DNA of 64,000 nucleotides from Candidatus Latescibacterota bacterium (GTDB lineage: Bacteria; Latescibacterota; UBA2968; UBA8231): the NCBI GenBank assembly GCA_965203355.1, contig OZ241889.1:3200001-3264000 (forward strand), read 5' to 3'. Positions 3 to 48,626 of the stretch are shown here, piece after piece. The number at the start of each line of letters is the position of its first letter. Within the stretch, counting starts at the first letter, position 1. Both the position numbers and the translations under genes were made by a program. The notes below the pieces were generated by a model. It was not told the DNA's origin. It searched no databases and worked only from the letters and a program-made list of their open reading frames with translations.

Positions 3-623
3 ACCATCCCCCGCGCCATCGTCGCTTCCCTAGCCATCGCCATGATGTTCTACATCGGCGTCGCGGCCGTCGCCCTAGCCGCCGTAGGGTCGGAGGCGTT
101 CTACGCGGCCACCATGGACAAAGCCGCTCCCCTAAAGGTCATCGCCCAGCACTTTGACGCGCCCGGCGTCTCTTGGATGCTGGCCCTAGGCGCAATCACC
201 GCTATGGCCGGGGTGCTGCTCAACCTGATCCTGGGTCTGTCGCGGGTCCTGCTAGCTATGGGCCGCCGAGGGGATATGCCCCACGCCCTCGCCCGTCTCA
301 ACCGAGATCAGAACACACCCGCTATGGCCGTGGTGGTGATCGGGCTGGCCATTGCCGGGCTGGCCCTCGCAGGCAACATCAAGACCACTTGGTCCTTTAG
401 CGCCTTCACTATTCTGGTCTACTACGCCATCACCAACTTCTGCGCTCTGCGCTTGCCAGCCGACCAGCGGCTCTACCCTCGGTGGATAGCCACAGTAGGC
501 TTAGGCGCCTGTCTGGGGCTGGCGTTTTTTGTCGAGCGCACGATCTGGCTCAGCGGCTTGGGATTGCTCTTATTCGGCTGGTGTTGGCACCGCGTGGCGC
601 AGTACTACAGGGGGAGGGCCTAG
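3..623 (+). CDS. APC family amino acid permease (5'-partial, runs off the window)
   Basis: The frame is open from base 3 (TIPRAIVASL...). It has multiple TM helices and the SRVLLAMGRRGDMP and TP motifs typical of APC transporters. Confidence 0.85.
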   Translation, partial: TIPRAIVASLAIAMMFYIGVAAVALAAVGSEAFYAATMDKAAPLKVIAQHFDAPGVSWMLALGAITAMAGVLLNLILGLSRVLLAMGRRGDMPHALARLNRDQNTPAMAVVVIGLAIAGLALAGNIKTTWSFSAFTILVYYAITNFCALRLPADQRLYPRWIATVGLGACLGLAFFVERTIWLSGLGLLLFGWCWHRVAQYYRGRA

Positions 624-22426: not shown

Positions 22427-22508
22427 AGAATGCTCACTTTCAAGGTTCATTCCATAGGGACATGATGTTCTATGGAAAAACGCGCTAGTGTCGCCCCAAC
22501 GCTATCCA

Positions 22509-23936: not shown

Positions 23937-23937
23937 A

Positions 23938-24699: not shown

Positions 24700-24703
24700 G
24701 CCT

Positions 24704-25462: not shown

Positions 25463-25468
25463 CGGCCG

Positions 25469-25660
25469 CTATTGGCCGGTGCGCTGGCGGTAGCGACGCG
25501 CCTGATTGGGATCTACGCGGCGCATCCGCTTGAGGATGTCGTCCGTGCTGGGGCGCTCGACCCGCGGCCGGCGCGGGCCGGTATCCGGGCCGTCGTCGTT
25601 GCCGTCGAGCGGCTTGGTCGGCCGGGGCGCACGCTCCCGGTAGTACATAAAATCGCTCAT
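25469..25660 (-). CDS. ubact: UBact prokaryotic ubiquitin-like modifier (Gln-terminated)
   Basis: 63-aa disordered protein ending ILKRMRRVDPNQARRYRQRTGQ, which fits the UBact R[T/S]G[E/Q] signature. It lies between dop and prcB and has a GGAGG RBS. Confidence 0.9.
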   Translation of the reverse strand: MSDFMYYRERAPRPTKPLDGNDDGPDTGPRRPRVERPSTDDILKRMRRVDPNQARRYRQRTGQ

Positions 25661-27201
25661 GGTGACACCTCCGGTTTTGGTTTTTTACCTAGTCTGGCGA
25701 GCAAATCCTCGACGCTCGCCGCCTCGTCTAAAGCCTCGTTATAATAAGTCGCGGTCTCTCGACTGACACAAGCCTTGAGGTCGATGACCTCGGTGCGGCC
25801 GTCGAGTTCCAGCTCAATGCTGTCCCAGTTGAGCGAGCGCACCGCAGCGGCAAATTTCTGCAACATCTTGCCGCGAAAGTAAGCGCGCGTGTCTTTAGGC
25901 GGATTGACCAACGCCCAGCCCACCTCCGCTTCAGAGACGACGCGCTCCACTTGGCCGGCGGCTTCAAGCACCGGGTACAGCCCTTCAGCCGGATCGATGT
26001 TGTGGTATTCGAGGTCTTGGCTTTGCAGCCACGCGAGGTCGGCCGGCCGTTCCCAATCGAGGCGCTCGGACTCGGCAAATGCATCTAACAGCCACTTTTT
26101 GGTCACCCAATCGACGCGGCCAATCAACGCTTGCGGATCGCGCGCGAGGGCATCCAACACGTCGCGCCAAGCCGCAAGAACCCAATCGGTCTCCTCGTCG
26201 CGGCCCTGAAAAACACCCGTCGCCGCAGCCATAATGGCCGTCTGTATCTCCAGCGCCGAACTCATCCTACCCTCGGCCAAAGCCACCGGCCACTGCCGGG
26301 ACTCGTCGCGGGAAATGGCCTTGAGCGCCCCAATGGGATCGGCCAAAGTACATGCGGGCAATGCACCAGCCTCTAGCAGATCCAGCACCAAGGAAGCCGT
26401 GCCAACTTTGAGCGCCGTAGCGTATTCGCACATGTTGGCGTCGCCGATGATCAGATGCAGGCGGCGGTGTTGCGCCGGATTGGCGTGCGGCTCATCGCGC
26501 GTGTTGACCAGCGGACGGCGGTGCATGGTATCAACGCTGGCGATGACCTCGAAAAAGTCCGCACGCTGGGTTAGCTGATACGTGGCGGCGCGCGCCCGGG
26601 CGTCCTGTTCGACGCCGACTTTGCCGGCCCCAGCAAAAATTTGCCGCGTCACCACAAAGGGCAGCAGCCCGTTGATCACCTGCTGGAAGGGCATATCGCG
26701 GCTGAGCAGGAAGTTCTCGTGGCAACCGTAGCTATGCCCCTCAAAGTCCGTGTTGTTTTTGTACAGACGCACCACGCCGCGACCGCGATCTTCGGTGCGT
26801 TGACGCGCACATTGGCGGAGAATCCGCTCCCCAGCGCGATCAACGGCGACCAAGTCGCGGAGGCTATAGCATTCTGGGGTGGAAAATTCTGGGTGGGTGT
26901 GATCGTTGTACAGGCGGGCCCCGTTGTGGACGATCAAGTCGCTTTTGAGGTCCGCTAGCTCAATCGGGCGCTGGCGATCCTGCTGCAAGTGGACGGTCTC
27001 GTCCTTGTCGTTGAGGAGTTCGGCGACCTCAAAGCCGCGCATGTCGAGCCGCGGGTTTTCGAGCGCGTAATTCCAGCGGGCAACAAAATCTTGGCGCACA
27101 TAGCAGCGAATCAACTCCATGGACTCTACCACCACGTCCATGGACTCGTCTTCGTCAACTTGGATGCCGTACTCGGTTTCTAAGCCGCAGAGCCGCTGCA
27201 T
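25657..27201 (-). CDS. dop: Deamidase/depupylase Dop
   Basis: GLETEYGI, W.Y..E.P..D.RGF Dop loop, NGARLYNDH.HPE.STPEC, SYGCHEN, TM..RPLVNTRDEPHA and RRLHLIIGDAN motifs. Confidence 0.9.
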   Translation of the reverse strand: MQRLCGLETEYGIQVDEDESMDVVVESMELIRCYVRQDFVARWNYALENPRLDMRGFEVAELLNDKDETVHLQQDRQRPIELADLKSDLIVHNGARLYNDHTHPEFSTPECYSLRDLVAVDRAGERILRQCARQRTEDRGRGVVRLYKNNTDFEGHSYGCHENFLLSRDMPFQQVINGLLPFVVTRQIFAGAGKVGVEQDARARAATYQLTQRADFFEVIASVDTMHRRPLVNTRDEPHANPAQHRRLHLIIGDANMCEYATALKVGTASLVLDLLEAGALPACTLADPIGALKAISRDESRQWPVALAEGRMSSALEIQTAIMAAATGVFQGRDEETDWVLAAWRDVLDALARDPQALIGRVDWVTKKWLLDAFAESERLDWERPADLAWLQSQDLEYHNIDPAEGLYPVLEAAGQVERVVSEAEVGWALVNPPKDTRAYFRGKMLQKFAAAVRSLNWDSIELELDGRTEVIDLKACVSRETATYYNEALDEAASVEDLLARLGKKPKPEVSP

Positions 27202-27209
27202 GAGCTAAG

Positions 27210-28904
27210 TCAGATCACCTGACCAACGCGCTTTTCCGGTGACTTTTCCGGCTGGGGCCTAACCGGGGTCACCCGCACGACGTTTTCCGGCTCGTAGTCG
27301 AGTAGTTTGAGCCAGTCCTCGACGCTATCCGAAGGGGGGAACACCTCGTTTTCGCGGTATTCAGCCCGCGTCGCCTGCCGCAAGTCCTCGGCGCAGATTC
27401 CGCCTGCGGGATTTTCTTCGGCAATGGCGCGCTTGATCGCCATTTCCTTGGCCCGCGATACGACCGAGGCGATGATGGCCCCGGAAATCAAATCGCCGCG
27501 ATAGAGCACTTCTTGGCGACCGCTGCGCAGCGACACCTCCAAGAAGCGCGCTTCTTCGCCTTTGGCGAACAACTCGTTCAAGCCCGCCTGTATCAGGGCC
27601 TCACGCGCAGCCGCCTCGCCCCCGTGTTGCTCCACCTCGGCGCGATCAATCGGCAACTCGGGCTTGAGGTAAATGCCCAAAATGTCGGCGGCCGCCTCGT
27701 AGTTGGGGCGCGCGACCTTGATCTTGCGGTCGATGCGGCCGGGCCGGAGCACCGCTGGATCGATCAAATCGTGGCGGTTGGAAGCCAAAATCAGCACCAC
27801 ATCGTGCAGCGACTCAATGCCATCCATCTCAGTGCAAAACATCGGCACGACCGTATTGGAGATGTTGTGGCTGCGCATCGAGCGCCGCGTGCCCAAGATC
27901 GACTCGGCTTCGTCGATAAAGACAAAAGGCAAATAACCTTCCTTGCGCTTTTGGCGCGCCTGAGCAAAGACTTCGCGCACCATGCGTTCGGTCTCGCCGA
28001 GCCACATGTTGAGAATCTCCGGCCCCTTGATGTGCATGAAATACTCTTCCAGTTCCAGTCCTTCGACCTCGCGCATGTGCTGCACCAAGTTGTACGCGGT
28101 GGCTTTGCCGATGAGGGTCTTGCCACAGCCCGGCGGGCCGTAGAGTAGAAAGCCTTTGGGCGTCGAATACTCGAAGCGCTCAAAGAGCTGGGGGTGCAAC
28201 GTGGGTAGTTCAATGGTGTCGCGGATGGCCTCAATCGCCTCTTGCTGACCGCCGATGCTCTCCCAAGGAGTGGGCGGCACGTCCTCGATGAAGTACTCCT
28301 TGCTCTCGGCGGACTGCAAAACTTCCAACGCAACCTTGTAGGCCGGGTCCATCCGCACCTCGTCGCCGATTTGCAAATTCGCGTCAGCCAATTCCGCGGC
28401 GCGTTCCACGACCACCTCTTGGGCGCCGTGCGCTTGGGCGATGCGCAAGCGGCCCTCGGGCAGCAGGTCGCCGATCTTGGCCACCGGCCCCGAGGGGCTG
28501 TGCCCCAAGTTGCCGACGACCGCATACGCTTCGTTCACCAGCACTCGGCAGCCAACCTGGAGCTGCGCCCCATCGACGCGCGGGTCAATGTTGGCATAGT
28601 ACTCGGCGCTGCCGACAAATACCGTGGCAACCCCCTCGCTCGGCATCCCGAGGAAAATGCCGACGCGGTTGGCTGGGGCCGTTACTTTTTCTAGCGCGGC
28701 TTCCATCTCCACGAGGGCACGCCGCGCCTCCTGAAAGGAAATCTCTCGCTCCATAAGCTGGCGCCGGAGGCGGTACAGCAGCGGGCGAGCCGGGTCGCGG
28801 TCTGGGGCGAGCGCAAGGAGCTTATCGACCAAGCGCAACGGCTCGGCTACCCGCTCCTCTGGCTCTTGGACCTTGTCGTATTCGTGCGATTCCCTGCGGT
28901 TCAT
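27210..28904 (-). CDS. arc: Proteasomal AAA+ ATPase ARC/Mpa
   Basis: N-terminal coiled coil, two OB domains, GPPGCGKT, IKGPEILN, FIDEAES, ASNR.DLIDPAVLRPGRIDRKI and SGAII motifs. Confidence 0.93.
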   Translation of the reverse strand: MNRRESHEYDKVQEPEERVAEPLRLVDKLLALAPDRDPARPLLYRLRRQLMEREISFQEARRALVEMEAALEKVTAPANRVGIFLGMPSEGVATVFVGSAEYYANIDPRVDGAQLQVGCRVLVNEAYAVVGNLGHSPSGPVAKIGDLLPEGRLRIAQAHGAQEVVVERAAELADANLQIGDEVRMDPAYKVALEVLQSAESKEYFIEDVPPTPWESIGGQQEAIEAIRDTIELPTLHPQLFERFEYSTPKGFLLYGPPGCGKTLIGKATAYNLVQHMREVEGLELEEYFMHIKGPEILNMWLGETERMVREVFAQARQKRKEGYLPFVFIDEAESILGTRRSMRSHNISNTVVPMFCTEMDGIESLHDVVLILASNRHDLIDPAVLRPGRIDRKIKVARPNYEAAADILGIYLKPELPIDRAEVEQHGGEAAAREALIQAGLNELFAKGEEARFLEVSLRSGRQEVLYRGDLISGAIIASVVSRAKEMAIKRAIAEENPAGGICAEDLRQATRAEYRENEVFPPSDSVEDWLKLLDYEPENVVRVTPVRPQPEKSPEKRVGQVI

Positions 28905-28916
28905 GGCATCCTCCCA

Positions 28917-29621
28917 CTAGTGGATCACGTCGCCGAGACGCCCGTAGCGCACTCGGCTGGGCAGGCGCCAGACAAAGCTGGCGACCACGGCCGGCAGCGA
29001 CGTCAAGCCCTGGTAGTAAGGCCCGCGCGTGTCGGGCTTCCACGACCAATAGATACTCATGGCCTTGCCCTTGATCAACCGCTTGGGCACCGCACGAAAG
29101 TAGCGGCTGTCCGAGCTATTGTCGCGGTTGTCGCCCATCATAAAGAAATGGCCCTCGGGCACAATGTACGGACCAAAATTGTCGCGTGGATTGCGCTCCG
29201 CTGGATAGTACCGGCGGTCGGCGTACTTGGCCAACGGCGGGTCTTGCACCGGCTCGCCATTGACGTGGAGCACTTTGTCGATGATGTGGACTTCCTGCCC
29301 TCCGACGGCGACACAGCGCTTAATCAAGTCGCGCTTCTCGTCCTGCGGAGAACGGAAAATCACGATGTCGCCCGGCTGTGGTTCCTTGAGCGCGGGCAGA
29401 CGGAAGAGGGAAATGCTCGTCAGGGGTACATCTACTGGAACGCCGTAGACAAACTTGTTGGCCAGCAGATAATCGCCCACCAAGAGCGTGTCTTCCATCG
29501 AGCTAGAAGGGATGTAAAAGGCCTGCACCACCCCGGTGCGAATGACCAAAAACAAACCCACGACAGTCAGTATTGAATACAGGTATTGGCCAAATTCGGA
29601 CTTTTGCTTGGCCTGCTTCAT
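28917..29621 (-). CDS. lepB: Signal peptidase I
   Basis: TM anchor, IPSSSMEDTL (Ser), IKR (Lys) and MMGDNRDNSSDSR. Confidence 0.95.
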   Translation of the reverse strand: MKQAKQKSEFGQYLYSILTVVGLFLVIRTGVVQAFYIPSSSMEDTLLVGDYLLANKFVYGVPVDVPLTSISLFRLPALKEPQPGDIVIFRSPQDEKRDLIKRCVAVGGQEVHIIDKVLHVNGEPVQDPPLAKYADRRYYPAERNPRDNFGPYIVPEGHFFMMGDNRDNSSDSRYFRAVPKRLIKGKAMSIYWSWKPDTRGPYYQGLTSLPAVVASFVWRLPSRVRYGRLGDVIH

Positions 29622-29634
29622 GTGCGGAATCTCC

Positions 29635-29717
29635 TCAGACCTGAATAATAAACGAAACGGCTTTGCCAGCCGCCATCTTCAGACCTGAGTATAATAAACG
29701 GCTTTCCTAACCGCCAT
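29635..29717. repeat. Imperfect tandem duplication (about 40 bp x2) upstream of lepB
   Basis: TCAGACCTGA-ATAATAAACG..GCTTT.C.A.CCGCCAT occurs at 29635-29676 and 29679-29717. Confidence 0.75.
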
Positions 29718-29776: not shown

Positions 29777-32281
29777 TTAGCGCAACAATCGGGCCATCTT
29801 TTGCCTCTTGTGCTTCTCGGCATAGTCTAACGGCGTCCGACCTTTATCGTCCTTGGAATTGGGATTGGTCCCCTTGTCTAACAGCACTTTAGCGGTCTCG
29901 AGAGCGTTGTGTTGGGCAGCGTAGTGCAGCGGCGTCCGACCCTTCTCATCCTTGCTATTAAGATAGCCCTGGCCTCCCATGTCTATCAGCACTTTAGCGG
30001 TCTCGAGAGCGTTGTGTTGGGCCGCATAGTGCAGCGGCGTCATACCCTTCGCGTCCCTCGGACTGAGAGCGGCGCCCTTGCCTCTAAGCACTTTAGCGGT
30101 CTCTGAAGCGTTGTGTTGGGCCGCATAGTGTAGCGGCGTCCGCCCCTTCGCGTCCCTGGGATTGCTGCCTATCAGCACTTTGGCGATCTCGAAAGCGTTG
30201 TGTTCCGCCGCATAGTGCAGCAAGCCTTTGCCGTCTTCGTCGCTGGAAAGAGCCGACAAAGTCTCGAAAGCCTTGGCTATCGCAGGTTGTTCTTCATACA
30301 GCCGGCCGCGATCTTTGGCATCCTTGGCATGGTCCGGGTCCTCTTGTTTCAACACATGCTCTAAGGTGCTAAGTAACGAACCGCTCTGTGAAAGCTTCCC
30401 CCGCAGATCCTTGTGCGACTTGGCGATGTCTAACGGCGCCCTACCATTCTTGTCCGCGATGCCGATATAGCCCCCCTTGTCTATCAGCATTTTAGCGACC
30501 CTGAAAGCGCTGCACCATATCGCATAGTGTAGCGGCGTCTGACCGTCATTGTCCTTGACGTTGACAAAGGCCTCCCTGCCGATCAGCACGTTAGCGGTCT
30601 CACAAGCGTTGTGTTGGGCCGCATAGTGTAGCGGCGTCCGCCCCTCCGCGTCCCTGGGATTGCTGCCGCTCAGCACTTTAGCGATCTTGAAAGCGTTGTG
30701 TTCCGCCGCATAGTGCAGCAAACCTTTGCCGTCTTGGTCGTTGGAAAGAGCCGACAAAGTCTCGAAAGCATTGGCTACCGCCGCATTGCCCTCGTCTGTG
30801 GTATTGGGTTCCTCATACGGCCGATCGCTATCTTTGGCATCCTTTAGACCATTTAGTAAATCGGTAATACGTTTGAAGAAGTCCGTGTCCCCTTGCGACC
30901 CTGCCGCCGGCTTCTCGACCGGCTGACGATCCTGACTCGGGGGTTGGATATGCACGATCTGTCCTGCTGACGCCGGCTTCTCGACCGGCTGCCGCCACAT
31001 TTTTTGCAATTCCTCGACACTCTTCTGATCCGGTACCAACGACTCAAGAACCTGAGCAAGCGCGTTGAGCATCTTCTCTTTCACTCGAGCTAGCTCCTCC
31101 TTGATAGGAGCAAAATCTCGATTTTGGGCTTTCATGATCTCGGCGATCTTTTCTCCAAGCACATCCTGCACTTTCTCATCAACAACCCACTTATTCAAGT
31201 CAAGATCGAGCTTGTTCAGTTCCCTCATCAGCACCTGGGCACTCTGCTCGTCTTGGCCTATGGCTTCTTCATACATCGAAAAAATCGCTTCCATCTCCGA
31301 TTTCATCTTAGCCCCCAACGCAGCCGGCTTGAATGCTTGGTTCTGGTCGCGCAAAAATTCCTTTAGAGGCTGCCCTTCACACAGATACTCTTCGCGGTGA
31401 TTGGCACTATACGCGCAGATGCCCACCGGCTCCAGTTCGTCGTCCGCGAGAATATCCTTAACATCCGTCAGGATGGCTTGCCGATCACTAGGGGACTTCG
31501 TGTCCGCCTTGTTCAATACCACATACAACGGCAACCCGTTCAACTCCAAGTTTTGTAAAAAGTCCAAATCGTCACTCGGCATCGTACCCGTCGCGTCTAA
31601 GCCGATCATCCAAATCAAAGCATCCCGATCCTTGAGAGCGACCACCGCTGTATTCCGATCCTCAGTGGTGTCACCTCCAGCCGGATTATAGCCCGGCGTG
31701 TCGATCAGGTAGATGTGCTCAAACAAGCCCTCTTGCAAAGGTATTTCAACGGTGATAAAGGGTAGAATAGCTCGGAGATCAAGGTCGTCTTTAGCATCGT
31801 GATCGTGCGAAAATTCCTTGTAGAGAGTCGGCGCAATATCTGCGGTGGCTCCTGAGCGGGAAAAGCCCTTTATCGAGATCGACCGGCTAGACAGCACATA
31901 CGACGGGATCTTCGTGGTCGGTGTAAGGCCAACAGATAGCTGAAGATCCGACGACCGAACAAAGCTATTGACAAACGACGACTTACCGCTGCTAAAGCCG
32001 CCGCCAATGGCAACCGAGTGCTTGGTAAAGGTGTGCGGAAAGGCCACGATCTTTTCCAACCGTTTTAAAAAATCCTGCAAGCGTGTAACGGCCAACGCCT
32101 CGTTTGCCAACGACGACTCCTTGCCGGCAAACTCCATAAAGTCCTCCTCGAAAGTCCGCTTAAAATGCTCAAAAGCCTCATTCTCACTCGGCTTCTTGCT
32201 GAGCAGATTGGTAATCAAGGCGTACTTTTGCTGCAAAACCTCCAAGTCTGCTTTGGTGCGCTCGTACTCTGTGCGGCTCAT
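29777..32281 (-). CDS. Dynamin-like GTPase fused to C-terminal ankyrin repeats
   Basis: G1 GGFSSGKS, G2 PTT, G3 DTPG and G4 NKAD, then a helical stalk, then about 9 G.TPLHYAA..N-type ankyrin units in two duplicated blocks. Confidence 0.88.
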   Translation of the reverse strand: MSRTEYERTKADLEVLQQKYALITNLLSKKPSENEAFEHFKRTFEEDFMEFAGKESSLANEALAVTRLQDFLKRLEKIVAFPHTFTKHSVAIGGGFSSGKSSFVNSFVRSSDLQLSVGLTPTTKIPSYVLSSRSISIKGFSRSGATADIAPTLYKEFSHDHDAKDDLDLRAILPFITVEIPLQEGLFEHIYLIDTPGYNPAGGDTTEDRNTAVVALKDRDALIWMIGLDATGTMPSDDLDFLQNLELNGLPLYVVLNKADTKSPSDRQAILTDVKDILADDELEPVGICAYSANHREEYLCEGQPLKEFLRDQNQAFKPAALGAKMKSEMEAIFSMYEEAIGQDEQSAQVLMRELNKLDLDLNKWVVDEKVQDVLGEKIAEIMKAQNRDFAPIKEELARVKEKMLNALAQVLESLVPDQKSVEELQKMWRQPVEKPASAGQIVHIQPPSQDRQPVEKPAAGSQGDTDFFKRITDLLNGLKDAKDSDRPYEEPNTTDEGNAAVANAFETLSALSNDQDGKGLLHYAAEHNAFKIAKVLSGSNPRDAEGRTPLHYAAQHNACETANVLIGREAFVNVKDNDGQTPLHYAIWCSAFRVAKMLIDKGGYIGIADKNGRAPLDIAKSHKDLRGKLSQSGSLLSTLEHVLKQEDPDHAKDAKDRGRLYEEQPAIAKAFETLSALSSDEDGKGLLHYAAEHNAFEIAKVLIGSNPRDAKGRTPLHYAAQHNASETAKVLRGKGAALSPRDAKGMTPLHYAAQHNALETAKVLIDMGGQGYLNSKDEKGRTPLHYAAQHNALETAKVLLDKGTNPNSKDDKGRTPLDYAEKHKRQKMARLLR

Positions 32282-34524
32282 GGGTTCACCTCCATATTAT
32301 CCAGTTCGCCTTTAACAGCACTAATTCTCTTTAGCTCCATTTCCTTGTTTTTAACGGAGTTCTCAAGCGAGACCAGCTCTCTTTGGTATCGCTCTAGTAG
32401 CTGCTCTGCCAAGGAATATTTGCTCATTTCTTCTTCTAGAGATTTGACGTATTTATTTATCTCACCCCTCAATTCATCTACGAATTCACCGATATAGACA
32501 TTCGCCTCATTAATAAATTTTTCCGCGGCTTTTTCTTTCAACAAGCCTTGGGACCGTAGAGATTTCGGCAGCTCTTTTGAGTAACTAAACTCTGAGATAG
32601 TTATGGCGTTGACAGTGCGCCTGGCCACTCTCCTTATCATCGCGGCATCCAACTGATCTTCGTCAAAACTCTCTCGCAACTCTTTGGTAGCGGATTTGAG
32701 GACATCGCTACGCCACTCTTCCTTTTTTTGTTCTGCCAATTCACCGAGAGAATCCGTCAAGTTTTGGTGGAATTCCGACAGCCCACTTAAAAAGGTACCT
32801 GTGCGGATGGTTTTATATTCCACCTGTTTGTATTCAGGGCTTCCCCAGAACTTCCACCAAGGCTTCTCTATTTCCACCCGTCCTTTACCTATACCTGTCG
32901 CCTTATCAAGAGCCTCCTCCAAAGCTTCTTTGCTGAGTTTACGCAAGGCTTCCTTTTTCAACTCGCTTATAACCTTCTGAATAGACTCTTGATATCCCAA
33001 GCTGACGTCCTCAGAAGCATTGCTGAGATTAGTTTTCAAAGCCTCTCTCTTCTTCTTAATGGTCTGAACATCTTCGCGTTCAATGTTATTTTGCATCTCC
33101 TCGACATGGTCGGACAAACCAGTGCGTAGAGCGCGAAGAGAACGGTGTTTGCCCTGGACGTAATTGCCAATCCGATTCTTGAGAATCTCCTCTTTCTTCG
33201 CCCGCACCTGTTCGACGATCGCCTGAATCGTCGACATATTGGCCAGCTTGTCCAAATTGCTCTTCGCCGATTGCTCATTCGAGAAATAATCTGGATACTC
33301 CCTCTGCAAACTGCTCCACACATGAACCATCCCTTCGTCCCAGCCCTCCTGCTGTCCAAAGCGTTGCTTCATACTTTCGCAAAGCCCCGCCGAGTGGATA
33401 ACCCTGCTCTGACCTTCAATCAACTGGTCATAGGCATCTTTCACCTCGGGATTACTTTCTTTGAGATCCTCGATAACCTTTTTCAAGTGGTGCCCAAGTT
33501 CTTGGGTGATAGCGTTCAACACGCGATCTAGCTGTCCGTCGTTTTCTACCTTCATATTGCTAAACATTTGGGTATCTACTTGGGCCGCCACGACATATAG
33601 CTCTCGGACGCCCTCCTTGCTGGTAATTCGGTCCATCAGTTCCATATCTTCGTGAGAAATAAACTGACCCGCCGGACTGACGACTAGCACCACGTCGCAT
33701 TTGCTTAAATACTCGCGGGTGCGCGCCTCACGCGACTGAATCGGATCGTTGATCCCGGGGGTATCTACGATCTGTATGTCCTTTAGGTTGTCTTGCGGCA
33801 GCAGGATGTTGACGCTCTTGGTAAAAGGCATGTATGGACCATCGGCACCCACGTACTCCGCCAGTTGGCTTTGCAAATCCGCCAGACCGCCCGACAAATT
33901 CAGCACCTTACTTTTGCCCAAACTCCCAATGGACGTATTGCTGTTGTCGATTTTCTCGCATTGCTCGTAAGACGACGCGAGAACGGGATTTTTATCGCGT
34001 ATCTCCCTTGTTGCTCGACGCTGCGCCTTTTCCTTGTCCTCAGTTGTGTGGCCTGCTACTTTTCTCACCGCCTTCCCAAGTCTGCTCTCTCCTTTCTCCA
34101 AAAGCTCATCTAAAAGATCACGCACGCGCTCCTGCACTTGCTTTTCGTAATCCCGAGCCTGAGCCTTCATATCCTCAATATCCGCAGGAGTAAAAAACTC
34201 CACTTCCGCCTGTACCGAATCCCCGTGCGAAAGGGTCGTCAAAGCAGCCGTCATTGGGGTCGCCGCCTTGGGCAAAATGCTCTGTCCCTCGAAGACCAAG
34301 GCGTTCAAAAGCGAGGACTTCCCCGACTTGACCCGCCCGACAATACCAATCCTCAGCAACCGTTCATCATCTTCAATCTCGGCCAATTCGGCTTGCAGTT
34401 TCTTGGCTGAGGGGATGCTGTGCGTTTGGTCCAAACTTGTTGCTTCATCGCCGAGAAGATCGCTGTACTTATCAACGACCTGATCCAGCTTTTCGCGGTA
34501 TGCTACAATGCCAATATGTTCCAT
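32278..34524 (-). CDS. Dynamin-like GTPase (LeoBC/DLP-like, unsplit)
   Basis: GRVKSGKS, PMTA, DTPGINDP..SRE..T and a long coiled-coil stalk with a KPWWKFWG aromatic paddle; AAGGAG RBS. Confidence 0.85.
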   Translation of the reverse strand: MEHIGIVAYREKLDQVVDKYSDLLGDEATSLDQTHSIPSAKKLQAELAEIEDDERLLRIGIVGRVKSGKSSLLNALVFEGQSILPKAATPMTAALTTLSHGDSVQAEVEFFTPADIEDMKAQARDYEKQVQERVRDLLDELLEKGESRLGKAVRKVAGHTTEDKEKAQRRATREIRDKNPVLASSYEQCEKIDNSNTSIGSLGKSKVLNLSGGLADLQSQLAEYVGADGPYMPFTKSVNILLPQDNLKDIQIVDTPGINDPIQSREARTREYLSKCDVVLVVSPAGQFISHEDMELMDRITSKEGVRELYVVAAQVDTQMFSNMKVENDGQLDRVLNAITQELGHHLKKVIEDLKESNPEVKDAYDQLIEGQSRVIHSAGLCESMKQRFGQQEGWDEGMVHVWSSLQREYPDYFSNEQSAKSNLDKLANMSTIQAIVEQVRAKKEEILKNRIGNYVQGKHRSLRALRTGLSDHVEEMQNNIEREDVQTIKKKREALKTNLSNASEDVSLGYQESIQKVISELKKEALRKLSKEALEEALDKATGIGKGRVEIEKPWWKFWGSPEYKQVEYKTIRTGTFLSGLSEFHQNLTDSLGELAEQKKEEWRSDVLKSATKELRESFDEDQLDAAMIRRVARRTVNAITISEFSYSKELPKSLRSQGLLKEKAAEKFINEANVYIGEFVDELRGEINKYVKSLEEEMSKYSLAEQLLERYQRELVSLENSVKNKEMELKRISAVKGELDNMEVNP

Positions 34525-34598
34525 TTTACTTCTCCTTTTAGATAACGTCTGGTACTCTCTTGAGTGGGAGATGCTTCGCTGCGTTCAGCATCGCTGGT

Positions 34599-36296
34599 TT
34601 AGGTGAAAATCGCTTGCTGGGCCTGTGAGCGAATGGTATCGCGAATGGTGGTAAGCTCGGCGATGGTCTGCTCCGTATTGCTCTTTTCGTCTTGCTTGGC
34701 TTGCTCGGCCGCGGCGATTTGGCTCCGCCTCTCTTGGATATGCGAATCCAATGCCTTGGCCTGCTCGTCGATCAAAAGGCTCACCTGCTCCTCGAAATGC
34801 TTGGGCAGTTCGCTGCGAATTTTGCTCTTGACATCCGGGATTACCGTTCCAATCAACTGGTCTCGGATTTGCTGCTCTTGCTTCCTCTTCTGAAAGCGGC
34901 CAATAATTTCGGGCAAGAAGAACAAAGCGAGCCCCAAGATGGGTTGTAAGAGGGTAATGGTCAGCGTGGTGACCACAGCGCGGTACATCCACTTTGTTTG
35001 TGAACTGGTGCCTCTCCCGAGGATTTTGTCCACCTCAGGCAACCCTCCAACTTTCGCCGCCAACTCTTCAGAGTTTGCGCCCGAGTACTGGCCCAAAACC
35101 GAGTCCATATTGAGACGGCCGACCAAATCCTCCTCAATTTGCCGGTGTAGCCGATCCATCGCCTCCTCCGTATGTCTCACAAGCGATGTGCGGACGATTT
35201 CCGACACTTCACGGTTTAGCGCACTTTGGGCGTTTTCTCCGCTGGACATAGCCAGCTTCGTTAGGTCTTCTACGGCCGCTTCCAAATCCGCGCCGACCCC
35301 TTCCACAATGGTGTTGACCCGGCTGGTGGAATACCGCGTGCGAATGTCTCGAATCATCTCTTCCTTTTGGCTCTGCAATTTCTGTAGATCGGCGGCAAGT
35401 TCGTCGATGGCCTCTTGGTTTTCCCGTGAGTCCCGTTGCAGTGCGCTGATACACGTGTTCAGGCTGCCATCGAGTTCCAAAGAGTGCGACTCCAAGCGGG
35501 AACCCCACCGCTCGGCGAACAGCTTTTCTGGATCGATGGCCTTGAGCATCTTGGCCAAGGTCTCCCCGCCATCCATGCCCAAAGTCTCAACAGGCGCGGA
35601 AAGCTCAAAGTCATCCTTTAGCCGATCCTGGATCTTGGTGGCAATCTCTTGGACCTCGGTGGGCGCACGCAGATTCGCCTTGCTTAGGAACACGGAGAAC
35701 TCCTTGCCGACCTGGTGGATTTCGGATAGCTGCCGCTCGATGGAGCGCGTGAGAGTCCCCTCCTCCACGCTGGTCAAGCCCACGTAGTAGCTTCCTTTAT
35801 TGAGGTAGGTCAAAATGGCGCGGTGATGTAAATCCCACGGCGCGTCAAAACCCGGCATATCTACCAGCACCAAGGGGAGAATCCTGTGCAGGGACTCGCT
35901 ATTGAGAAAGACCCGCACATATTGGTATTGGCGGGCGCGCGCTTCGTCGTTGTGAATCGCATCCAGCTCCTCAAGGGCGAAGCGGTCCGCCTCCCCATCC
36001 TCCTTGACCGCCTCGATATACTCGCTTGCCGAATGCCGCAGCTCGGTCGCCAACGCAGTCTTCGGGTTAATGCCCACTGGCAGGCACTCAGAGCCTAAAA
36101 AGGAATTGATCAAGGTACTCTTGCCCGCACTAAAAGCCCCGACCACCGGCACGATCAGCTCGGCCTCGGCCAAGTTTTGCTTTAATGGCTCTATCGACTG
36201 GATGTTCTTTTCTATCGCCTCCATAGAGCGGGCTTTGCTCAATTCGGCTTTGACTCCATCGAGATAAGCGAGAAACTGTTGTTGCGTCTGTAGCAT
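34599..36296 (-). CDS. Dynamin-like GTPase (LeoA-like)
   Basis: VVGAFSAGKS, P.TA.ATEL, LVDMPGFD and LSK motifs, with a hydrophobic hairpin ..LGLALFFLPEII near the C-terminus; GGGAGG RBS. Confidence 0.88.
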   Translation of the reverse strand: MLQTQQQFLAYLDGVKAELSKARSMEAIEKNIQSIEPLKQNLAEAELIVPVVGAFSAGKSTLINSFLGSECLPVGINPKTALATELRHSASEYIEAVKEDGEADRFALEELDAIHNDEARARQYQYVRVFLNSESLHRILPLVLVDMPGFDAPWDLHHRAILTYLNKGSYYVGLTSVEEGTLTRSIERQLSEIHQVGKEFSVFLSKANLRAPTEVQEIATKIQDRLKDDFELSAPVETLGMDGGETLAKMLKAIDPEKLFAERWGSRLESHSLELDGSLNTCISALQRDSRENQEAIDELAADLQKLQSQKEEMIRDIRTRYSTSRVNTIVEGVGADLEAAVEDLTKLAMSSGENAQSALNREVSEIVRTSLVRHTEEAMDRLHRQIEEDLVGRLNMDSVLGQYSGANSEELAAKVGGLPEVDKILGRGTSSQTKWMYRAVVTTLTITLLQPILGLALFFLPEIIGRFQKRKQEQQIRDQLIGTVIPDVKSKIRSELPKHFEEQVSLLIDEQAKALDSHIQERRSQIAAAEQAKQDEKSNTEQTIAELTTIRDTIRSQAQQAIFT

Positions 36297-36628
36297 GTTG
36301 ATACCTCCCTAGGTGGTGATGTGCAGACCCGGACATGGCGCACAAAGCAACCAAACGACGACTTTGCCGGATGGAGCACACGGGTACGCTACGGTGCCGC
36401 GAAAAATTCGGTTTTCTTGGGGTTAAGTTTTGCAGCGATCCCGCATCTTCTCTTAAACGAGGTTGACGTTGCAGCCCCCTCGGGGGCCGGGCAGTGTCTA
36501 ACTCACGCAAGTTTTGATGCGGGAAGTTCCTACTTATTCGCAGAGCGGTTAGGAGCTACCTAGCCACTTTGCATAGGCTATTGTATTCAGCAGGCCACCC
36601 GACATGGGGGGCTTGCATGAGTTAGACG
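36297..36628 (-). ncRNA. Candidate structured 5' leader or ncRNA of the dynamin operon
   Basis: A 16-bp inverted repeat (36496-36511/36612-36627) has one mismatch, which becomes G-U on the minus strand. A perfect 9-bp inverted repeat (36439-36447/36516-36524) crosses it, and there are at least 4 internal hairpins. Confidence 0.5.
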
Positions 36629-36634
36629 GGCTTA

Positions 36635-36663
36635 AAGATATATAAGCCATTGCAGGAATACAA
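36635..36663 (-). promoter_or_regulatory. Predicted sigma70-type promoter for the dynamin operon
   Basis: Minus strand TTGTAT (36663-36658), a 17-nt spacer, then TATCTT (36640-36635). The +1 would fall at about 36628-36627. Confidence 0.5.
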
Positions 36664-36784
36664 TAGGAAGACAAGAAGATTTTAGTTCGGAGAGGCACTT
36701 CGCAAGAGCTTCAAAACGCACCGCTAGCTAAATCATTATAGATGATATATGGCGGGCTGGGACTGTGGCCCAAGTCTAAAGCCA

Positions 36785-37780
36785 CTAAGCCTTGGGCACC
36801 TTCACCACCTGCCCGGTTTCCCAGCTTTCGATGAGTGCTTCAATCACGAGCTGCACCCGCAAGGCGTCCGCCCCTTTGGCATCCACCTGCTCAGGTGGAA
36901 CTTGGTTTAGCAAATCGTCGATCCACGCGTTGATCCGCGCCGGAAAGGTATCCGCAAAACCGCCCATGCCCCCGAGGTGATCGTAGCTTTCCACCTCGCG
37001 TGAAAAGCGCGGGTAAAACGTCAGCTTCTCGCAGGCTTCGTTGATGATGATCCGCCCCTCCGAGCCGACCAATTCCAAGGTCTCCAAGCCGTAGCTTCCG
37101 CCGGCGTCGTACGACCCCGTTAAATGCCCGATGACGCCATCCTCGTACAGCAGATTCGCCTGCACATTGGACCAAATTTGCCGACCTTTGCCTTTCTTAA
37201 AAAAGGCGTGTACCCGATCCACCCCGCCAGCGAAATAGCTCATCACGTCCAGTGAATGGGGATGCAGGGCGCGGATGTGGAACCACGGACTTGATTCGTT
37301 GGGATTGTTGATCCACATGGTCATGTTGACCATCTGCAACGCGCCGAGCCGCCCGTTAGTCAGCCATTCCTTGGCTTTGACGGCCGCCGGCGTAAAGCGG
37401 TGGTTCAGGTTGATTCCGTAGGGCAACTCTTTTTCGGCGGCCAAGGCCACCATCTGGCGCGCCTTGGGAATTTCATTGGAAATCGGCTTCTCGCCCAACA
37501 CCGGAATGCCGGCCTGCAAAAGCGCCATCGTCGGCTCGTAGTGATCGCCCCCGTTCTCCACCCCCGCCGTGGTCACCGAGCAGGCGTCGAGCCGCAGGCC
37601 GCTGGCGACCATTTCCTCGACCGAGTAAAAGGCCCGCGCCCCATAGGACGCAGCCGCTTGGTCCGCTTGTTCTTTAATCATATCGCACACGGCGACGACC
37701 TTTGCGTTTTCGTGTGCCGTGTAGCAACGGGCGTGATTATTGCCAATTCCACCCATGCCGACAATCCCAATGTGCAGCAT
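36785..37780 (-). CDS. Gfo/Idh/MocA family oxidoreductase
   Basis: MLHIGIVGMGGIG, EKPIS, NHRF and H.LD motifs; AAGGAG RBS before ATG 37780. Confidence 0.9.
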   Translation of the reverse strand: MLHIGIVGMGGIGNNHARCYTAHENAKVVAVCDMIKEQADQAAASYGARAFYSVEEMVASGLRLDACSVTTAGVENGGDHYEPTMALLQAGIPVLGEKPISNEIPKARQMVALAAEKELPYGINLNHRFTPAAVKAKEWLTNGRLGALQMVNMTMWINNPNESSPWFHIRALHPHSLDVMSYFAGGVDRVHAFFKKGKGRQIWSNVQANLLYEDGVIGHLTGSYDAGGSYGLETLELVGSEGRIIINEACEKLTFYPRFSREVESYDHLGGMGGFADTFPARINAWIDDLLNQVPPEQVDAKGADALRVQLVIEALIESWETGQVVKVPKA

Positions 37781-37815
37781 TGCAAACTCCTTGTTGATTT
37801 TGAATTGCGAAACTT

Positions 37816-38880
37816 CTAGCCGGCCACCGGCCTGGGCAGTTCCACGCCCAGCTCGGCCGCCAAGGCCCGGATCTCGGCCCAAGCCGTCTCATCCACGTAC
37901 AGACCATCGCGCCGCCGCGCCTGCAACCGCTGGTGCGCCCGCTCGCCCGGCAGCCAGACCTCGGCCACGCCGGGCGCGGGCGGACACGACTTGACCCATT
38001 CGACAAAGGCCGCGACCTCGGCGTAAAATTCGTCCAACGGCAAAAAAGCCGCAACATTGAGCACGGCGATAAACAGCGCGTTCCCGGTGCGCTCGGGCGC
38101 TTCTTGCGTCATCCCAGCCCCGGAAAGCGACCCGGCCAAAACATCGACTAGCGCGGCAAGCCCGTAGCCCTTATGCCCGCTCTGCGGGAAACCGAGCGGC
38201 AAAATGGCACCAGCGGGCGGGCCGTAGTACGCATCCACACTCGTCGTCGGGCGGCCTGCTGAGTCGATCAGCATTCCGGGCGGGGCATCCTCGCCCCGGT
38301 TGTGCCAAAGCCGCATATCGCCGCCGGAAATCATGCTCGTCGTCATGTCGAGAATTACCGGCCACGGGCCGCTGGTGGGAATGCCGCAGCAGATCGGATT
38401 CGTCGGCAGGCGACGGCTGCGGCCACCAAAGGGCGCCACCGCCCCATCGCCACCGTGCCCGTTAGCCGCGATGAGCGCAATGCAGCCGACGCGCGTAGCG
38501 ATTTCGGCGAAACGCCCCAGCCGCGCTACGTGATTGCAGTCGCGCACCCCGACGACCGCCACCGCACCGTCGCCGAGCTTGTCCAGCGCCCAGCGCACGG
38601 CCTCGGTGGCGGTCACCGGACCGTAGTTCCACTGGCCGCTCAGCCGCCCGCCGCACTGGCTCTCGTCCAGCACGACCAACTCGGCTCCAGGCTCGACTTG
38701 GCCCTCGCGCACCATGTTCGCGTATTGGGGCAACCGCAACACGCTGTGGGTATCGTGCCCCATCAGCCCAGCTTCGACCAAGTGCTCGGCTACCAACGCC
38801 GCATCGTCCGCCGGGACGCCGACCCGCCGCAAGCAAGCGTGCGCCAGCGCATCGAGGTCTTCAGCCCGCAACGTGGGCAC
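37816..38880 (-). CDS. Ldh2 family (malate/lactate/ureidoglycolate) dehydrogenase
   Basis: GHDTHS, NHVARLG, VAPFGG..RRLPTNP, LDM.TS, GHKGYGL and LPGE motifs. Confidence 0.9.
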   Translation of the reverse strand: MPTLRAEDLDALAHACLRRVGVPADDAALVAEHLVEAGLMGHDTHSVLRLPQYANMVREGQVEPGAELVVLDESQCGGRLSGQWNYGPVTATEAVRWALDKLGDGAVAVVGVRDCNHVARLGRFAEIATRVGCIALIAANGHGGDGAVAPFGGRSRRLPTNPICCGIPTSGPWPVILDMTTSMISGGDMRLWHNRGEDAPPGMLIDSAGRPTTSVDAYYGPPAGAILPLGFPQSGHKGYGLAALVDVLAGSLSGAGMTQEAPERTGNALFIAVLNVAAFLPLDEFYAEVAAFVEWVKSCPPAPGVAEVWLPGERAHQRLQARRRDGLYVDETAWAEIRALAAELGVELPRPVAG

Positions 38881-44912: not shown

Positions 44913-47519
44913 ATGCGTAGCCTCTTCGTGCTGATCGGCATCTCGTTGATGATCGCTTGTGGAGAGCGCCAGCCACCCCCGCTCGCTCCAGCCGATTCAC
45001 ACCCAATTCAACGGGGCCAGATTGTAACAGCCGAGGGCGCGGCCGTGTCGGGCGCTCAGGTGGTTATCATAGACCCGGAGCGTCTCAAGGTCTTGGCGCG
45101 GGCGGCGGGGAATGCAAACGGGCACTTTGTCGTTTCCGTGCCCTATCGACCCAGCTACTATGTGGGCGTTACCGCGCCTTACATGCCAACGCACCTTGAC
45201 ACGGCGTTTGCTTTTACGGGCGACGTCATCACCGTCGATGGGTCGCTCGGTCGTATCGCGGGCAAGGCCGCACAAGCGGCGCGCCGGCTGGGCGACGTCA
45301 ACAACGATGCTAAAGTCGATATAGCGGATGCCCTGTTCGTGCTGCTCTATACCTTAGACCGCGCGTCTTTCGTCGCTCCCAATCAAGGCGACATTACTTT
45401 GGGGGATGTCAACCAGGATGGCGCGATAGACCAAGTAGATGTCCTGCTTATTATGACCTATATAATGAACCCGCTGGACCCGGCGTTGCCGGATGGAATC
45501 GGTTCAGTCCTTGAGACATCTGTTGAATCCGATCGAGAAGTGTTGCTCGCTTTCTATGAGGCAACGGGCGGCGACTGGGCGAATCGCACCCACTGGCGCA
45601 GCGACGTCCCGCTGAGCCAATGGCAGGGCGTTAGAACCGATGACCAAGGGCATGTCACTCGCTTGTACCTCAGCCATCGCGGGTTGACCGGAACAATTCC
45701 CGCTGCCTTGGGAAAACTCGAAAACCTGCAAACCCTAGACCTCGCCCACAACCAATTGACCGGCGAGATTCCCGAACAACTGGGACAACTCAAAAACCTG
45801 CGAGAGCTATACCTCGACGGCAACCAATTGACCGGAGAAATTCCCATCACTTTGGGACTACTCGAAAACCTGCAAATCCTATACCTACAAGAAAACAAAT
45901 TGACCGGAGAAATTCCTACCACTTTGGGACAACTCGAAAACCTGTTATACCTATACCTACAAGAAAACGAACTGACCGGAGAAATTCCTACCACTTTGGG
46001 ACAACTCGAAAACTTGCAAATCCTAGACTTACAAGAAAACAAGTTGACCGGAGAAATCCCCGTCGCCCTGGGACAACTCAAAAACCTGTTATACCTATAT
46101 CTACGAGAAAACGAACTGACCGGAGAAATCCCCGTCGCCCTGGGACAACTCGAAAACCTGCGAGAGCTGTACCTCGGCGGCAACGAACTGACCGGAGAAA
46201 TTCCCGTCGCCCTGGAACGACTCAAAAACCTGCAAACCCTAGACCTACGAGAAAACAAATTGACCGGAAAAATTCCCGTCGCCTTGGGACAACTCGAAAA
46301 CCTGCGAGAGCTATACCTCGCCGACAATCAATTGACCGGAGAAATTCCCGAACATTGGGGACACCTACAACACCTATACCTCGCTGGCAACCAATTGACC
46401 GGGTGTATCCCCTTCGCTTTGCGAGGGGTAGCGTACAATGACTTTGGCTCCTTAGGGCTGGACTCCTGTCCCCATCCCTCGTTTGAATCCTATTGGACGG
46501 CGTTGATCGCTTTCTATGAGGCGACCGGAGGCGACGGCTGGTGGAATCGCACCCACTGGCGCAGTGACGCCCCGCTAGGTGAATGGTACGGCGTGACCAT
46601 GGATAAACGAGAGGACATCACTGGCTTGGAACTATCCGACAACGGGTTGACCGGAGAAATTCCCAAAGAATTAGGGCAACTCGAAAACCTGCAAGTCCTA
46701 AGTCTCAGCCAAAACAAATTGACCGGCCAGATCTCCAAAGAATTGGGACAACTCGAAAGATTGGGAGCGCTATACCTGCAAGAAAACGAATTAACCGGGG
46801 AAATTCCAGAACAACTAGGACAACTCGAAAGATTGGGAGCACTATACCTGCAAGAAAACGAATTAACCGGAGAAATTCCAAAACAACTAGGATAACTCAA
46901 AAACCTACAACACTTACACTTACAAAAAAACAAATTGACCGGAGAAATTCCAGAACAACTAGGACAACTCGAAAATCTGCTATACCTATACTTACAAGAA
47001 AACGAATTAACCGGAGAAATTCCAAAAGAATTGGGACGACTCGAAAACCTGCAAGTCCTAAGCCTCAGCCAAAACGAACTAACCGGGGAAATTCCAAAAG
47101 AATTAGGTCAACTCGAAAACCTGCAAGTCCTAAGCCTCAGCCAAAACGAACTAACCGGAGAAATTCCAAAAGAAATGGGACAACTCGAAAACCTGCCATA
47201 CCTATACCTGCAAGAAAACGAACTGATCGGCCAGATCCCAAAAGAATTAGGACAACTCGAAAACCTGCTATACCTATACCTGCAAGAAAACAAATTGGCG
47301 GGCCAGATCCCAAAAGAATTAGGTCAACTCGAAAACCTGCAACTCCTAAACCTCAGCCAAAACAAATTGACCGGGGAAATTCCCAAACAACTGGAACGAC
47401 TCGAAAACCTGCGAGCACTATACCTCGCCGGCAACGAATTGACCGGGTGTATCCCCGCCGCTTTGCAAGCGATACCGAACAATGACTTAGACAAACTAGG
47501 GTTGGCCTTCTGCCAGTGA
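44913..47519 (+). pseudogene. Lipoprotein with dockerin-like domain and two plant-type LRR solenoids, interrupted by an in-frame TAA at 46893
   Basis: Lipobox LMIAC, duplicated GDVN.D..I...D dockerin motifs, LRRNT caps (L.AFYEATGG..W..RTHW.SD.PL..W.GV), and 11+12 repeats of 24 aa. ORFs 44913-46895 and 46935-47519 share a frame. Confidence 0.85.
45650..47455 (+). repeat. 72-bp coding tandem repeats (LRR units) in two blocks
   Basis: The recurring unit is TTGACCGGAGAAATTCC...GGACAACTCGAAAACCTG...AAC with 72-nt periodicity. Confidence 0.9.
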
Positions 47520-48538: not shown

Positions 48539-48611
48539 AAGAAGTGGAACGAGGAGTGGTCAGTGGTCAGTGGTCATCGTCAACCTCAATCAGTGAAAGA
48601 AGTGGAACGAG
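48515..48611 (+). repeat. 39-bp direct repeat of the acuI 3' end flanking (AGTGGTC)x3
   Basis: 48515-48553 and 48573-48611 are identical at 38/39 nt. A heptamer triplet lies at 48555-48575. Confidence 0.9.
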
Positions 48612-48626
48612 AAGCGCGCTGAATAT

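Follow-up and report, generated by a model that had tools for sequence, protein, structure and literature searches.

Riboswitches that mask the ribosome-binding site (RBS), such as the thiamine pyrophosphate (TPP) riboswitch of Escherichia coli thiM, and the c4 antisense RNA of phages P1 and P7, which acts on the ant operon, are described systems with which the element reported here can be compared. RNAs of the c4 type control antirepressor genes, and a 1990 paper by Citron and Schuster reportedly deals with c4 repressors. At the DNA level, the attC sites of integrons carry the core sites R'' (RYYYAAC) and R' (GTTRRRY). Closest to our element is sRNA-Xcc1, which Chen et al. in 2011 are said to have called trans-acting in their title. 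The family is represented by Rfam entry RF02221 (87-nt model, gathering cut-off of 53 bits) and comprises members from Xanthomonas, Xylella, Pasteurellaceae prophages and APSE phages. In Xanthomonas, sRNA-Xcc1 is an 88-nt RNA with both ends mapped and one Northern band of about 100 nt (PMC2996969). Published accounts place it before symE in an integron cassette and ahead of an ORF6N gene in APSE phages, and give seven copies for Xylella. The subject of the present work is an intergenic element on the minus strand of a 64,000-nt stretch of a Candidatus Latescibacterota genome (contig OZ241889.1), hereafter the window, where it precedes an operon of dynamin genes. We consider it probable that this element is a genuine cis-acting RNA leader (36629-36470, minus strand) which makes up the first half of the 331-nt 5' untranslated region (UTR) of the dynamin operon and controls translation initiation. 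The leader is not part of the dynamin system, since it heads many unrelated genes in the phylum, and it is a long-form variant of a known and poorly understood RNA family, sRNA-Xcc1, in a new phylum.

Structure, covariation and promoter of the leader family

The 488-nt gap (36297-36784) between an upstream GFO/IDH/MocA oxidoreductase gene and the downstream dynamin operon was used as a query, and the central part of this gap (about 36613-36460) matched other loci in all five related genomes searched, with 72-79% identity. Nine aligned copies displayed a conserved core and an outer stem changing in sequence with its pairing kept, and a covariance model, R1, was built from them. Matches to R1 were found in 72 of 150 related Latescibacterota genomes, about 245 altogether with 1-14 in each positive genome, and in 61 of the 150 genomes of an even phylum-wide sample. 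The window holds a single copy in its 64 kb, scored at 141.7 bits by R1, of which it was one of the nine training sequences. From the roughly 245 genome matches, 100 were aligned in alignment A6 (99 distinct); loci L088, L090, L096, L098-L100, L102, L104, L107-L109, L111 and L112 were not aligned, and the multi-copy loci L157 and L195 were likewise left out. A degenerate core pattern also retrieved 64 metagenome contig stretches on which R1 gave 62 matches, and the resulting metagenome set (50 distinct rows) has no sequence in common with the R1 training set. Viral contigs contained no match to the core pattern, nor did plasmids give a blastn match to the window copy.

In the 99 distinct copies, 94.6% of 3628 cells of the nested structure were paired and 32 of its 37 pairs showed double changes, a level reached by none of 500 shuffles, with slid controls paired at 34-50%. 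The metagenome set gave 89.9% paired cells and double changes in 29 of 37 pairs. The covariation that a preliminary description of this locus, made by reading its letters, had proposed as a check is thus strongly present among the copies. That description had also pointed to a 16-bp stem with a wobble on the minus strand only, and this stem, P1, was confirmed: in the window it consists of 15 Watson-Crick pairs and U36617-G36506, which on the other strand would be a C-A mismatch, and in the family 14 of 14 modelled pairs changed on both sides with 96.8-98.5% of cells paired, double changes being found in 14 of 14 pairs of the metagenome set as well. Inside P1, the family consensus is a single long arm (P2, P3, internal loop, P4 and P5), and the three separate hairpins of a multi-branch loop drawn there earlier were not recovered. 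In the window copy, two pairs of P4 are non-standard. On the 3' side, a P6-type hairpin starting within the first 6 nt, at the GGC of the long-range helix, with a folding free energy (dG) of -6 or lower, was found in 85 of 92 distinct copies (mean z -2.7), so that the GCCCC-CGAG-GGGGC hairpin already noticed at 36487-36474 is present and recurrent.

A long-range helix of the type GUCGGGUnn/nnRCCCGRC, represented in the window by GUCGGGUGG and CUGCCCGGC, is interleaved with P1 (A-B-A'-B'), which results in a pseudoknot-like topology. Because it is absent from the model structure, this helix constitutes cleaner evidence than the nested pairs: 98.2% of its cells were paired in the 99 copies, with 65 double-change cells, compared with 27-47% when its partner was slid, and 94.1% were paired in the metagenome set. 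Its covariation sits at the variable end. An interleaved topology had been put forward before and is indeed conserved, although with these partners and not with those then named. The short local helix P2 (AUG.CGGG/CCCGCAU) has CGGG in common with the long-range helix and shows some covariation in its outer pairs. G-U cells outnumbered A-C cells both in the nested structure (300 against 68) and in the long-range helix (186 against 7), and therefore the sense strand is the folded strand. The 351-nt leader as a whole folded at z = -3.50, none of 100 shuffles being as good, and its minimum free energy structure holds the P1 stem. Constrained folding with either P2 or the long-range helix forced gave a gap of 15.6 kcal/mol, which was discarded as an artefact because the program does not allow P1 and the interleaved helix in one structure.

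The arrangement is also found in a sequencing run labelled as sponge metagenome, in which one contig covers 36100-37000 with about 93% similarity (25 substitutions and 60 gap letters) and keeps the arrangement. Where it differs within the motif, it does so in the variable tip, and 36542 U>G (minus strand) restores the consensus GGC/P4 pair. Other contigs, matching the conserved core alone, suggest further copies.

Upstream of P1, a promoter motif TTGNNN-16..18-TANNNT ending 3-12 nt before the stem was present in 74 of 98 distinct upstream regions, against 1 of 98 control regions and 41 of 1960 shuffles. In 72 of the 74 motif-bearing copies the -10 hexamer ends 6-7 nt before P1, the distance being 7 nt in the window, where the promoter, TTGTAT-17-TATCTT as first described, matches the E. 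coli consensus at 7 of 12 positions and has its -35 region TTGTATTCCTG in common with the copy L132. Since the motif is conserved family-wide, the promoter and the transcription start are supported, and the leader would be transcribed from its own promoter from about 36627.

Some copies are arranged in unusual ways. Leader copies of identical score occur five times in one genome (L157, G101) and three times in another (L195, G084), with transposase genes of the IS1 or IS1595 type no more than about 1.5 kb away; because identical copies lie near such genes, some may travel with insertion sequences. At L151 (G003:C1:1316539-1318983), two same-strand copies stand in tandem 485 nt apart, the usual promoter motif is absent from both and a terminator-like run precedes. 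Partial matches of 57 nt restricted to the arm (model positions 42-97) were seen at L213 (9062-9118), L219 (4832-4888) and L234 (1669-1725), and in each case a full copy is located about 3 kb away on that contig.

Start-region pairing and the genes behind the leader

The arm is separated from the 3' half of P1 by a segment, UUCCCGCAUC (family consensus UUCCCGCAUCucu), which in many copies is complementary to a site holding a start codon. A contiguous complement of at least 8 nt at +5..+85 was found in 35 of 99 copies, compared with 8 of 99 for a control stretch (Wilcoxon p = 2e-7), and the target contained an ATG in 23 of these 35 copies. In several copies, the ATG starts the long open reading frame (ORF). 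The pairs of this anti-start helix covary, for example GCAUUUC/GAAAUGC and CGCAGU/ACUGCG. In the window, the two 9-mers UCCCGCAUC and GAUGCGGGA, which had been proposed as the interleaved helix, are perfect complements (-18.1 kcal/mol, z = -3.6, RNAduplex) of a pairing type enriched in the family, and the reading that suits them best is an anti-start helix instead of the core pseudoknot.

Over the 900 nt that follow, the longest open frame lay on the leader's own strand in 90 of 100 copies, and an ORF of at least 60 aa started within 300 nt in 95 of 100. These 95 ORFs fell into 55 clusters. Pfam scans were made on 68 cluster representatives as a set and on 40 singly, and among the 40 proteins, 22 had varied hits and 18 had none. 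The hits comprised repeat proteins (ankyrin, WD40, LRR and NHL), subtilase, dockerin/Ig, fn3/Big_1, cadherin-like, PPC, PEGA and collagen-like proteins, a MunI restriction enzyme, an SNase nuclease, DUF1232, DUF7424 and an IS1595-type protein, to which the set scan added an outer-membrane beta-barrel protein. As classified by these domains, the downstream set looks like accessory, surface and host-interaction genes. Many leader-headed genes encode eukaryote-like repeat proteins, a kind of protein thought to act on hosts.

A single further dynamin-family gene was found behind a leader, at L132, and its product is 31% identical to that of the first gene of the window operon, dyn1. At 79 other dynamin loci no R1 copy was found, blastn and nhmmer giving nothing as well (best E 0.71), and therefore the leader is not a general part of dynamin operons. 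Together with its absence at the same operon site of two close relatives and with the diversity of the genes it heads, this contradicts the earlier proposal of a non-coding RNA component of a dynamin-ankyrin system.

The two relatives concerned, L001 and L005, have an oxidoreductase gene and an adjoining Ldh_2 gene 86-91% identical to those of the window (90% for the GFO gene), and a dyn1 only 61% identical to that of the window. There, the GFO gene ends 36 nt before the dynamin start, without a leader. More generally, the nearest relatives of dyn1 are found in Latescibacterota metagenome-assembled genomes at 49-61% identity. Pfam Dynamin_N was detected in all three genes of the window operon (dyn1, dyn2 and a dynamin-ankyrin fusion gene), and Ank repeats in the third. 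Because the operon proteins are 35-68% identical to those of the two relatives, compared with 82-95% for the genes on both sides (22500-29670 and 36785-38880), the dynamin, dynamin and dynamin-ankyrin operon is, by this measure of identity, a hypervariable island in a conserved neighbourhood, with the leader at its upstream edge. For the part of the UTR between the anti-start target and dyn1 (36297-36438), no relatives were found, the best weak matches having E of at least 0.19. A coding explanation of the region was rejected, the overlapping ORFs 36130-36510 (minus strand) and 36321-36563 (plus strand) being without a Pfam match. The coordinates of all these features are given in Table 1.

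Table 1. Features of the leader and of its surroundings in the window; all lie on the minus strand
Feature	Positions	Description
-35-like hexamer	36658-36663	TTGTAT; 17-nt spacer to the -10 hexamer
-10-like hexamer	36635-36640	TATCTT; P1 begins 7 nt after it; putative transcription start near 36627-36629
Whole leader motif	36470-36629	About 160 nt, R1 match; P1, P2, P3-P5 arm, long-range helix and start of the 3' hairpin
P1, 5' arm	36612-36627	GUCUAACUCAUGCAAG
P1, 3' arm	36496-36511	CUUGCGUGAGUUAGAC
Long-range helix, 5' strand	36595-36603	GUCGGGUGG; overlaps the P2 5' strand AUG.CGGG (36605-36598)
Long-range helix, 3' strand	36486-36494	CUGCCCGGC; 3' of P1
Long arm	36529-36594	P3: CCUGC (36594-36590) with GUAGG (36533-36529)
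Near-invariant internal loop	36589-36579 and 36539-36534	UGAAUACAAUA and GAAUAA; from RNAalifold and pair counts
Variable P4-P5 tip	36540-36578	From RNAalifold and pair counts
Anti-start segment	36516-36524	UCCCGCAUC; P2 3' strand and complement of the downstream start region
3' hairpin P6	36474-36488	GGCCCCC-GA-GGGGGCU; GGC common with the long-range helix; no U tail
Anti-start target	36439-36447	GAUGCGGGA; holds the AUG (36446-36444) of an upstream ORF
Rest of the 5' UTR	36297-36438	Includes the Shine-Dalgarno sequence of dyn1, GGGAGG (36309-36304); dyn1 start codon at 36296-36294
Window-only stretch	36309-36772	About 460 nt without counterpart at the same site in L001 and L005 (alignment A2)
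Downstream operon	29777-36296	
dyn1	34599-36296	
dyn2	32278-34524	
Dynamin-ankyrin fusion	29777-32281	

A second dyn1-like protein, P0059, 47% identical to dyn1, was also noticed, and the genome of the window probably carries a paralogous dynamin operon. Elsewhere in the window, a unit with a period of 72 nt is repeated 17 times at 45639-47477, in two blocks separated by 459 nt, and probably encodes a protein with 24-residue repeats. The two copies of a 42-nt direct repeat at 48515-48556 and 48573-48614 are 95% identical, their starts being 58 nt apart.

Relation to sRNA-Xcc1

The window copy gave no RF02221 match at E up to 10, and its Rfam matches were at chance level only (CRISPR-DR10, 14.6 bits; PhotoRC-I, 11.4 bits). 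Other leader copies matched RF02221 with 27.7, 27.5 and 17.1-28.6 bits and divergent metagenome variants with 35.1 and 32.1 bits, all under the cut-off; the matches of 27-29 bits extend along the full model. Searching five whole Latescibacterota genomes with RF02221 gave 11 matches, none above the cut-off, and among the matches listed, all five in G003, the single one in G004 and the best one in G101 fell on R1 copies, which is far beyond chance. The view that the element belongs to no known Rfam family consequently holds as far as thresholds go, none being reached, but has to be amended by a relationship lying below them. In the reciprocal direction, R1 scored two true sRNA-Xcc1 members at only 9.8 and 6.3 bits, the top match of each locus being the element itself.

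True sRNA-Xcc1 members were detected above the cut-off in 57 of 121 Pasteurellaceae genomes (53-86 bits). At the bona fide loci (L264-L294), 31 of 31 face a same-strand frame, and an ORF led by a Shine-Dalgarno (SD) sequence lies 12-73 nt downstream in 28 of 31; five of eight scanned downstream ORFs were of the antirepressor type (P22_AR_N, Bro-N, AntA, KilA-N). The joining segment of these short forms (UUUYGAA) pairs with a site 12-25 nt past the match in 20 of 31 loci, compared with 1 of 31 controls, and this pairing covaries. This arrangement, as read from the loci, suggests that sRNA-Xcc1 RNAs are cis-leaders and do not act solely in trans as small RNAs. The Pasteurellaceae pairing target was seen to lie just before the SD sequence. 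In the literature covered, which was partial and whose supplements might bear on the question, no description was found of the Latescibacterota leader or of sRNA-Xcc1 as a cis-leader.

Proposed mechanism, alternatives and comparison with known systems

In the mechanism that we propose, the leader would be made from its own promoter near 36627 and would fold into P1, one long arm (P3-P5), the long-range helix GUCGGGUGG/CUGCCCGGC and P6. The long-range helix would compete with the short local helix P2, and UUCCCGCAUC would have two alternative partners, the 5' strand of P2 and the downstream start-codon site. With the GUCGGG strand engaged in the long-range helix, the anti-start segment would be free and the start region masked; with P2 formed, the start region would be open. 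We infer the switching, its direction and its trigger, for which a small molecule, a protein, temperature or the RNA of another copy acting in trans are candidates. The cis-regulatory switch suggested in the preliminary description is consistent with the hallmarks observed, namely a structured leader, an interleaved topology and a start-masking pairing.

Several observations weigh against a leader that switches translation. No covariation at all was seen in the CGGG/CCCG core of P2, of which only 81% is paired in the independent set, and therefore the supposed switch could amount to one pseudoknotted fold; as pseudoknots lie outside what nearest-neighbour folding can score, it does not rank the two states. 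The nested structure is favoured by the way A6 and A8 were made, both alignments having been fitted to the model. A clear anti-start complement is present in only about a third of the copies, and a test by RNAduplex with shuffled anti-start segments, replaced here by the test of contiguous complements against a control stretch, gave a mean z of only -0.75. A strict sigma-70 consensus scan of the window leader returned 0 sites, and to that extent the promoter as first described did not hold. The further hairpins that had been proposed up to the RBS were not supported either, the last 191 nt of the UTR (36470-36280) being unstructured against shuffles (z = 0.17). The downstream genes have no metabolic theme and are too diverse for one ligand. 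Finally, the AUG of the window target heads an upstream ORF (uORF) of seven codons, MRDRCKT, with its stop at 36425-36423, 126 nt before the dynamin start codon. The window target region corresponds to the SD-spacer-AUG of the sister copy L122 (by eye, GGGAUCG for GGGAAUG in L122), the dynamin start lies 150 nt past the original start site, and by this alignment the ancestral SD looks decayed and the ancestral start seems lost in the window. Since the masked site is that of the uORF only, an effect on the dynamin genes would be indirect, through the uORF or polarity, or partly lost.

A rather unlikely alternative, not exclusive of the cis-leader, is a small-RNA gene, in which case the leader would be cut or terminated into a stable trans-acting RNA of about 160 nt, whose UUCCCGCAUC would pair with start regions on many mRNAs, those of the other copies included. 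Conservation of the anti-start segment from copy to copy makes cross-pairing possible, and the bona fide short forms precede antirepressor genes, a class controlled by c4-type RNAs. The detection of the relative sRNA-Xcc1 as an 88-nt RNA with a Northern band of about 100 nt (PMC2996969) would also fit. A terminator-like end (hairpin and U run) was, however, present in only 3 of 97 copies, a same-strand gene directly downstream is found in nearly all long-form copies (90 of 100) as well as in every short-form locus, and the complementary site lies in the same transcript, therefore making cis action the simpler reading. It also seems quite unlikely that the leader is a static structured 5' end, serving as a stabilising cap or a fixed protein-binding site and spread with a portable promoter. 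Such an end would agree with a P1 beginning at the putative first transcript base, a P2 almost without covariation, a regulon lacking a metabolic theme and a window platform which no longer touches the main start codon; a stabiliser, on the other hand, needs no near-invariant internal loop, long-range helix or P6, and the enriched, covarying complement at start regions would be left unexplained.

A mobile or recombination element acting at the DNA level, either a miniature inverted-repeat transposable element (MITE) with terminal inverted repeats or an attC-like site, is highly improbable. The element does recur genome-wide, with 1-14 copies per genome, but its P1 arms covary instead of being conserved, which argues against MITE termini. 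The stretch is present in the window and absent in close relatives, and a number of identical copies have IS1 or IS1595 transposase genes close by; yet no target-site duplications or empty sites differing by exactly the 132-nt repeat-bounded unit were seen, alignment A2 giving no target-site duplication at the window borders, and no match was found in plasmids or viral contigs. As for attC, the window arms GTCTAAC...GTTAGAC fit the core pattern and sRNA-Xcc1 is described in integron cassettes, whereas the family consensus arms GTCAAC/GTTGAC miss that pattern and, among the matches listed, copies are dispersed rather than arrayed. Moreover, conservation does not stop at the 3' arm but takes in P6 and a strand of the long-range helix, the wobble pairs favour the sense strand, most copies have a promoter before and a gene after them, and their orientation follows the gene in 90 of 100.

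Returning to the cis-acting leader, an extension of it is doubtful, though worth stating: the leader and sRNA-Xcc1 might be one misfiled class of cis- (perhaps also trans-) acting translational switch, with a pocket-like loop sensing a signal and with up to 14 copies per genome tying host-interaction genes into one regulon. Under that same tentative extension, the regulon would include the genes of ankyrin, WD40 and LRR proteins, secreted proteases and adhesin-like proteins, and the dynamin operons. If the cis-leader is real, an uncultured candidate phylum gains a well-supported regulatory RNA which marks the transcription starts of dozens of accessory genes, together with a handle on the expression of the hypervariable dynamin-ankyrin operon. 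A Proteobacterial Rfam family of trans-acting small RNAs would then really be a 5' leader with a built-in target beside the ribosome-binding site, and sRNA-Xcc1 matches in prophages, integrons and genomic islands would be read differently. The conserved loop and the pseudoknot-like fold would make it a candidate orphan riboswitch, and the regulatory model would now apply to both long and short forms.

Compared with known systems, the leader resembles an integron attC site in that its inverted repeat is imperfect, spans about 130 nt and carries AAC...GTT close to the ends, and in having a known relative linked to integron cassettes. It differs from attC in strand, extent of conservation, promoter and the absence of arrays: attC-style same-strand arrays were not seen, the copies being dispersed with few close pairs among the matches listed, and integrase genes were not searched for. 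With the c-di-GMP-I (GEMM) riboswitches it shares many copies per genome before diverse secreted and surface proteins; there is no Rfam match and the fold is different, so that the analogy is one of regulon style only. The likeness to RBS-masking riboswitches lies in a promoter-proximal covarying domain, putative mutually exclusive helices and a segment that can pair with the SD/start region. As expected of a riboswitch, a conserved, covarying structured domain was found in the 5' UTR; in contrast to those riboswitches, the regulon is incoherent, and no ligand can be inferred from it. Rfam C4 (RF01695) had no match in the window, the other copies or the metagenome variants, and the resemblance to c4 is one of layout, with an RNA at the operon head whose exposed segments are complementary to the translation start region of the same transcript, and with short-form relatives (sRNA-Xcc1) preceding antirepressor genes.

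The comparison with sRNA-Xcc1 itself goes furthest. The leader, with about 160 nt, is about twice as long as the 85-90 nt of sRNA-Xcc1 and contains arm insertions of 30-41 nt; its P1 of 14-16 bp, with a 5' extension, and the anti-start segment replace the second hairpin of sRNA-Xcc1. It belongs to another phylum and heads other genes: whereas sRNA-Xcc1 is found in integron cassettes and prophages before symE or antirepressor-type genes, the genes behind the leader encode repeat proteins, secreted proteins, nucleases and dynamins, with few copies near insertion sequence genes. On the other hand, in the cmscan alignments the 9-bp closing stem of sRNA-Xcc1 (G.C.GG.GG / CC.CC.G.C) coincides with the long-range helix of the leader, and P3, the internal loop AAUACAA.A / GAAUAA and P4 are aligned column for column. 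In both, a hairpin of the GGCACCC...GGGUGCC type follows, the element sits directly before an SD-led ORF, and the joining segment pairs with a downstream site.

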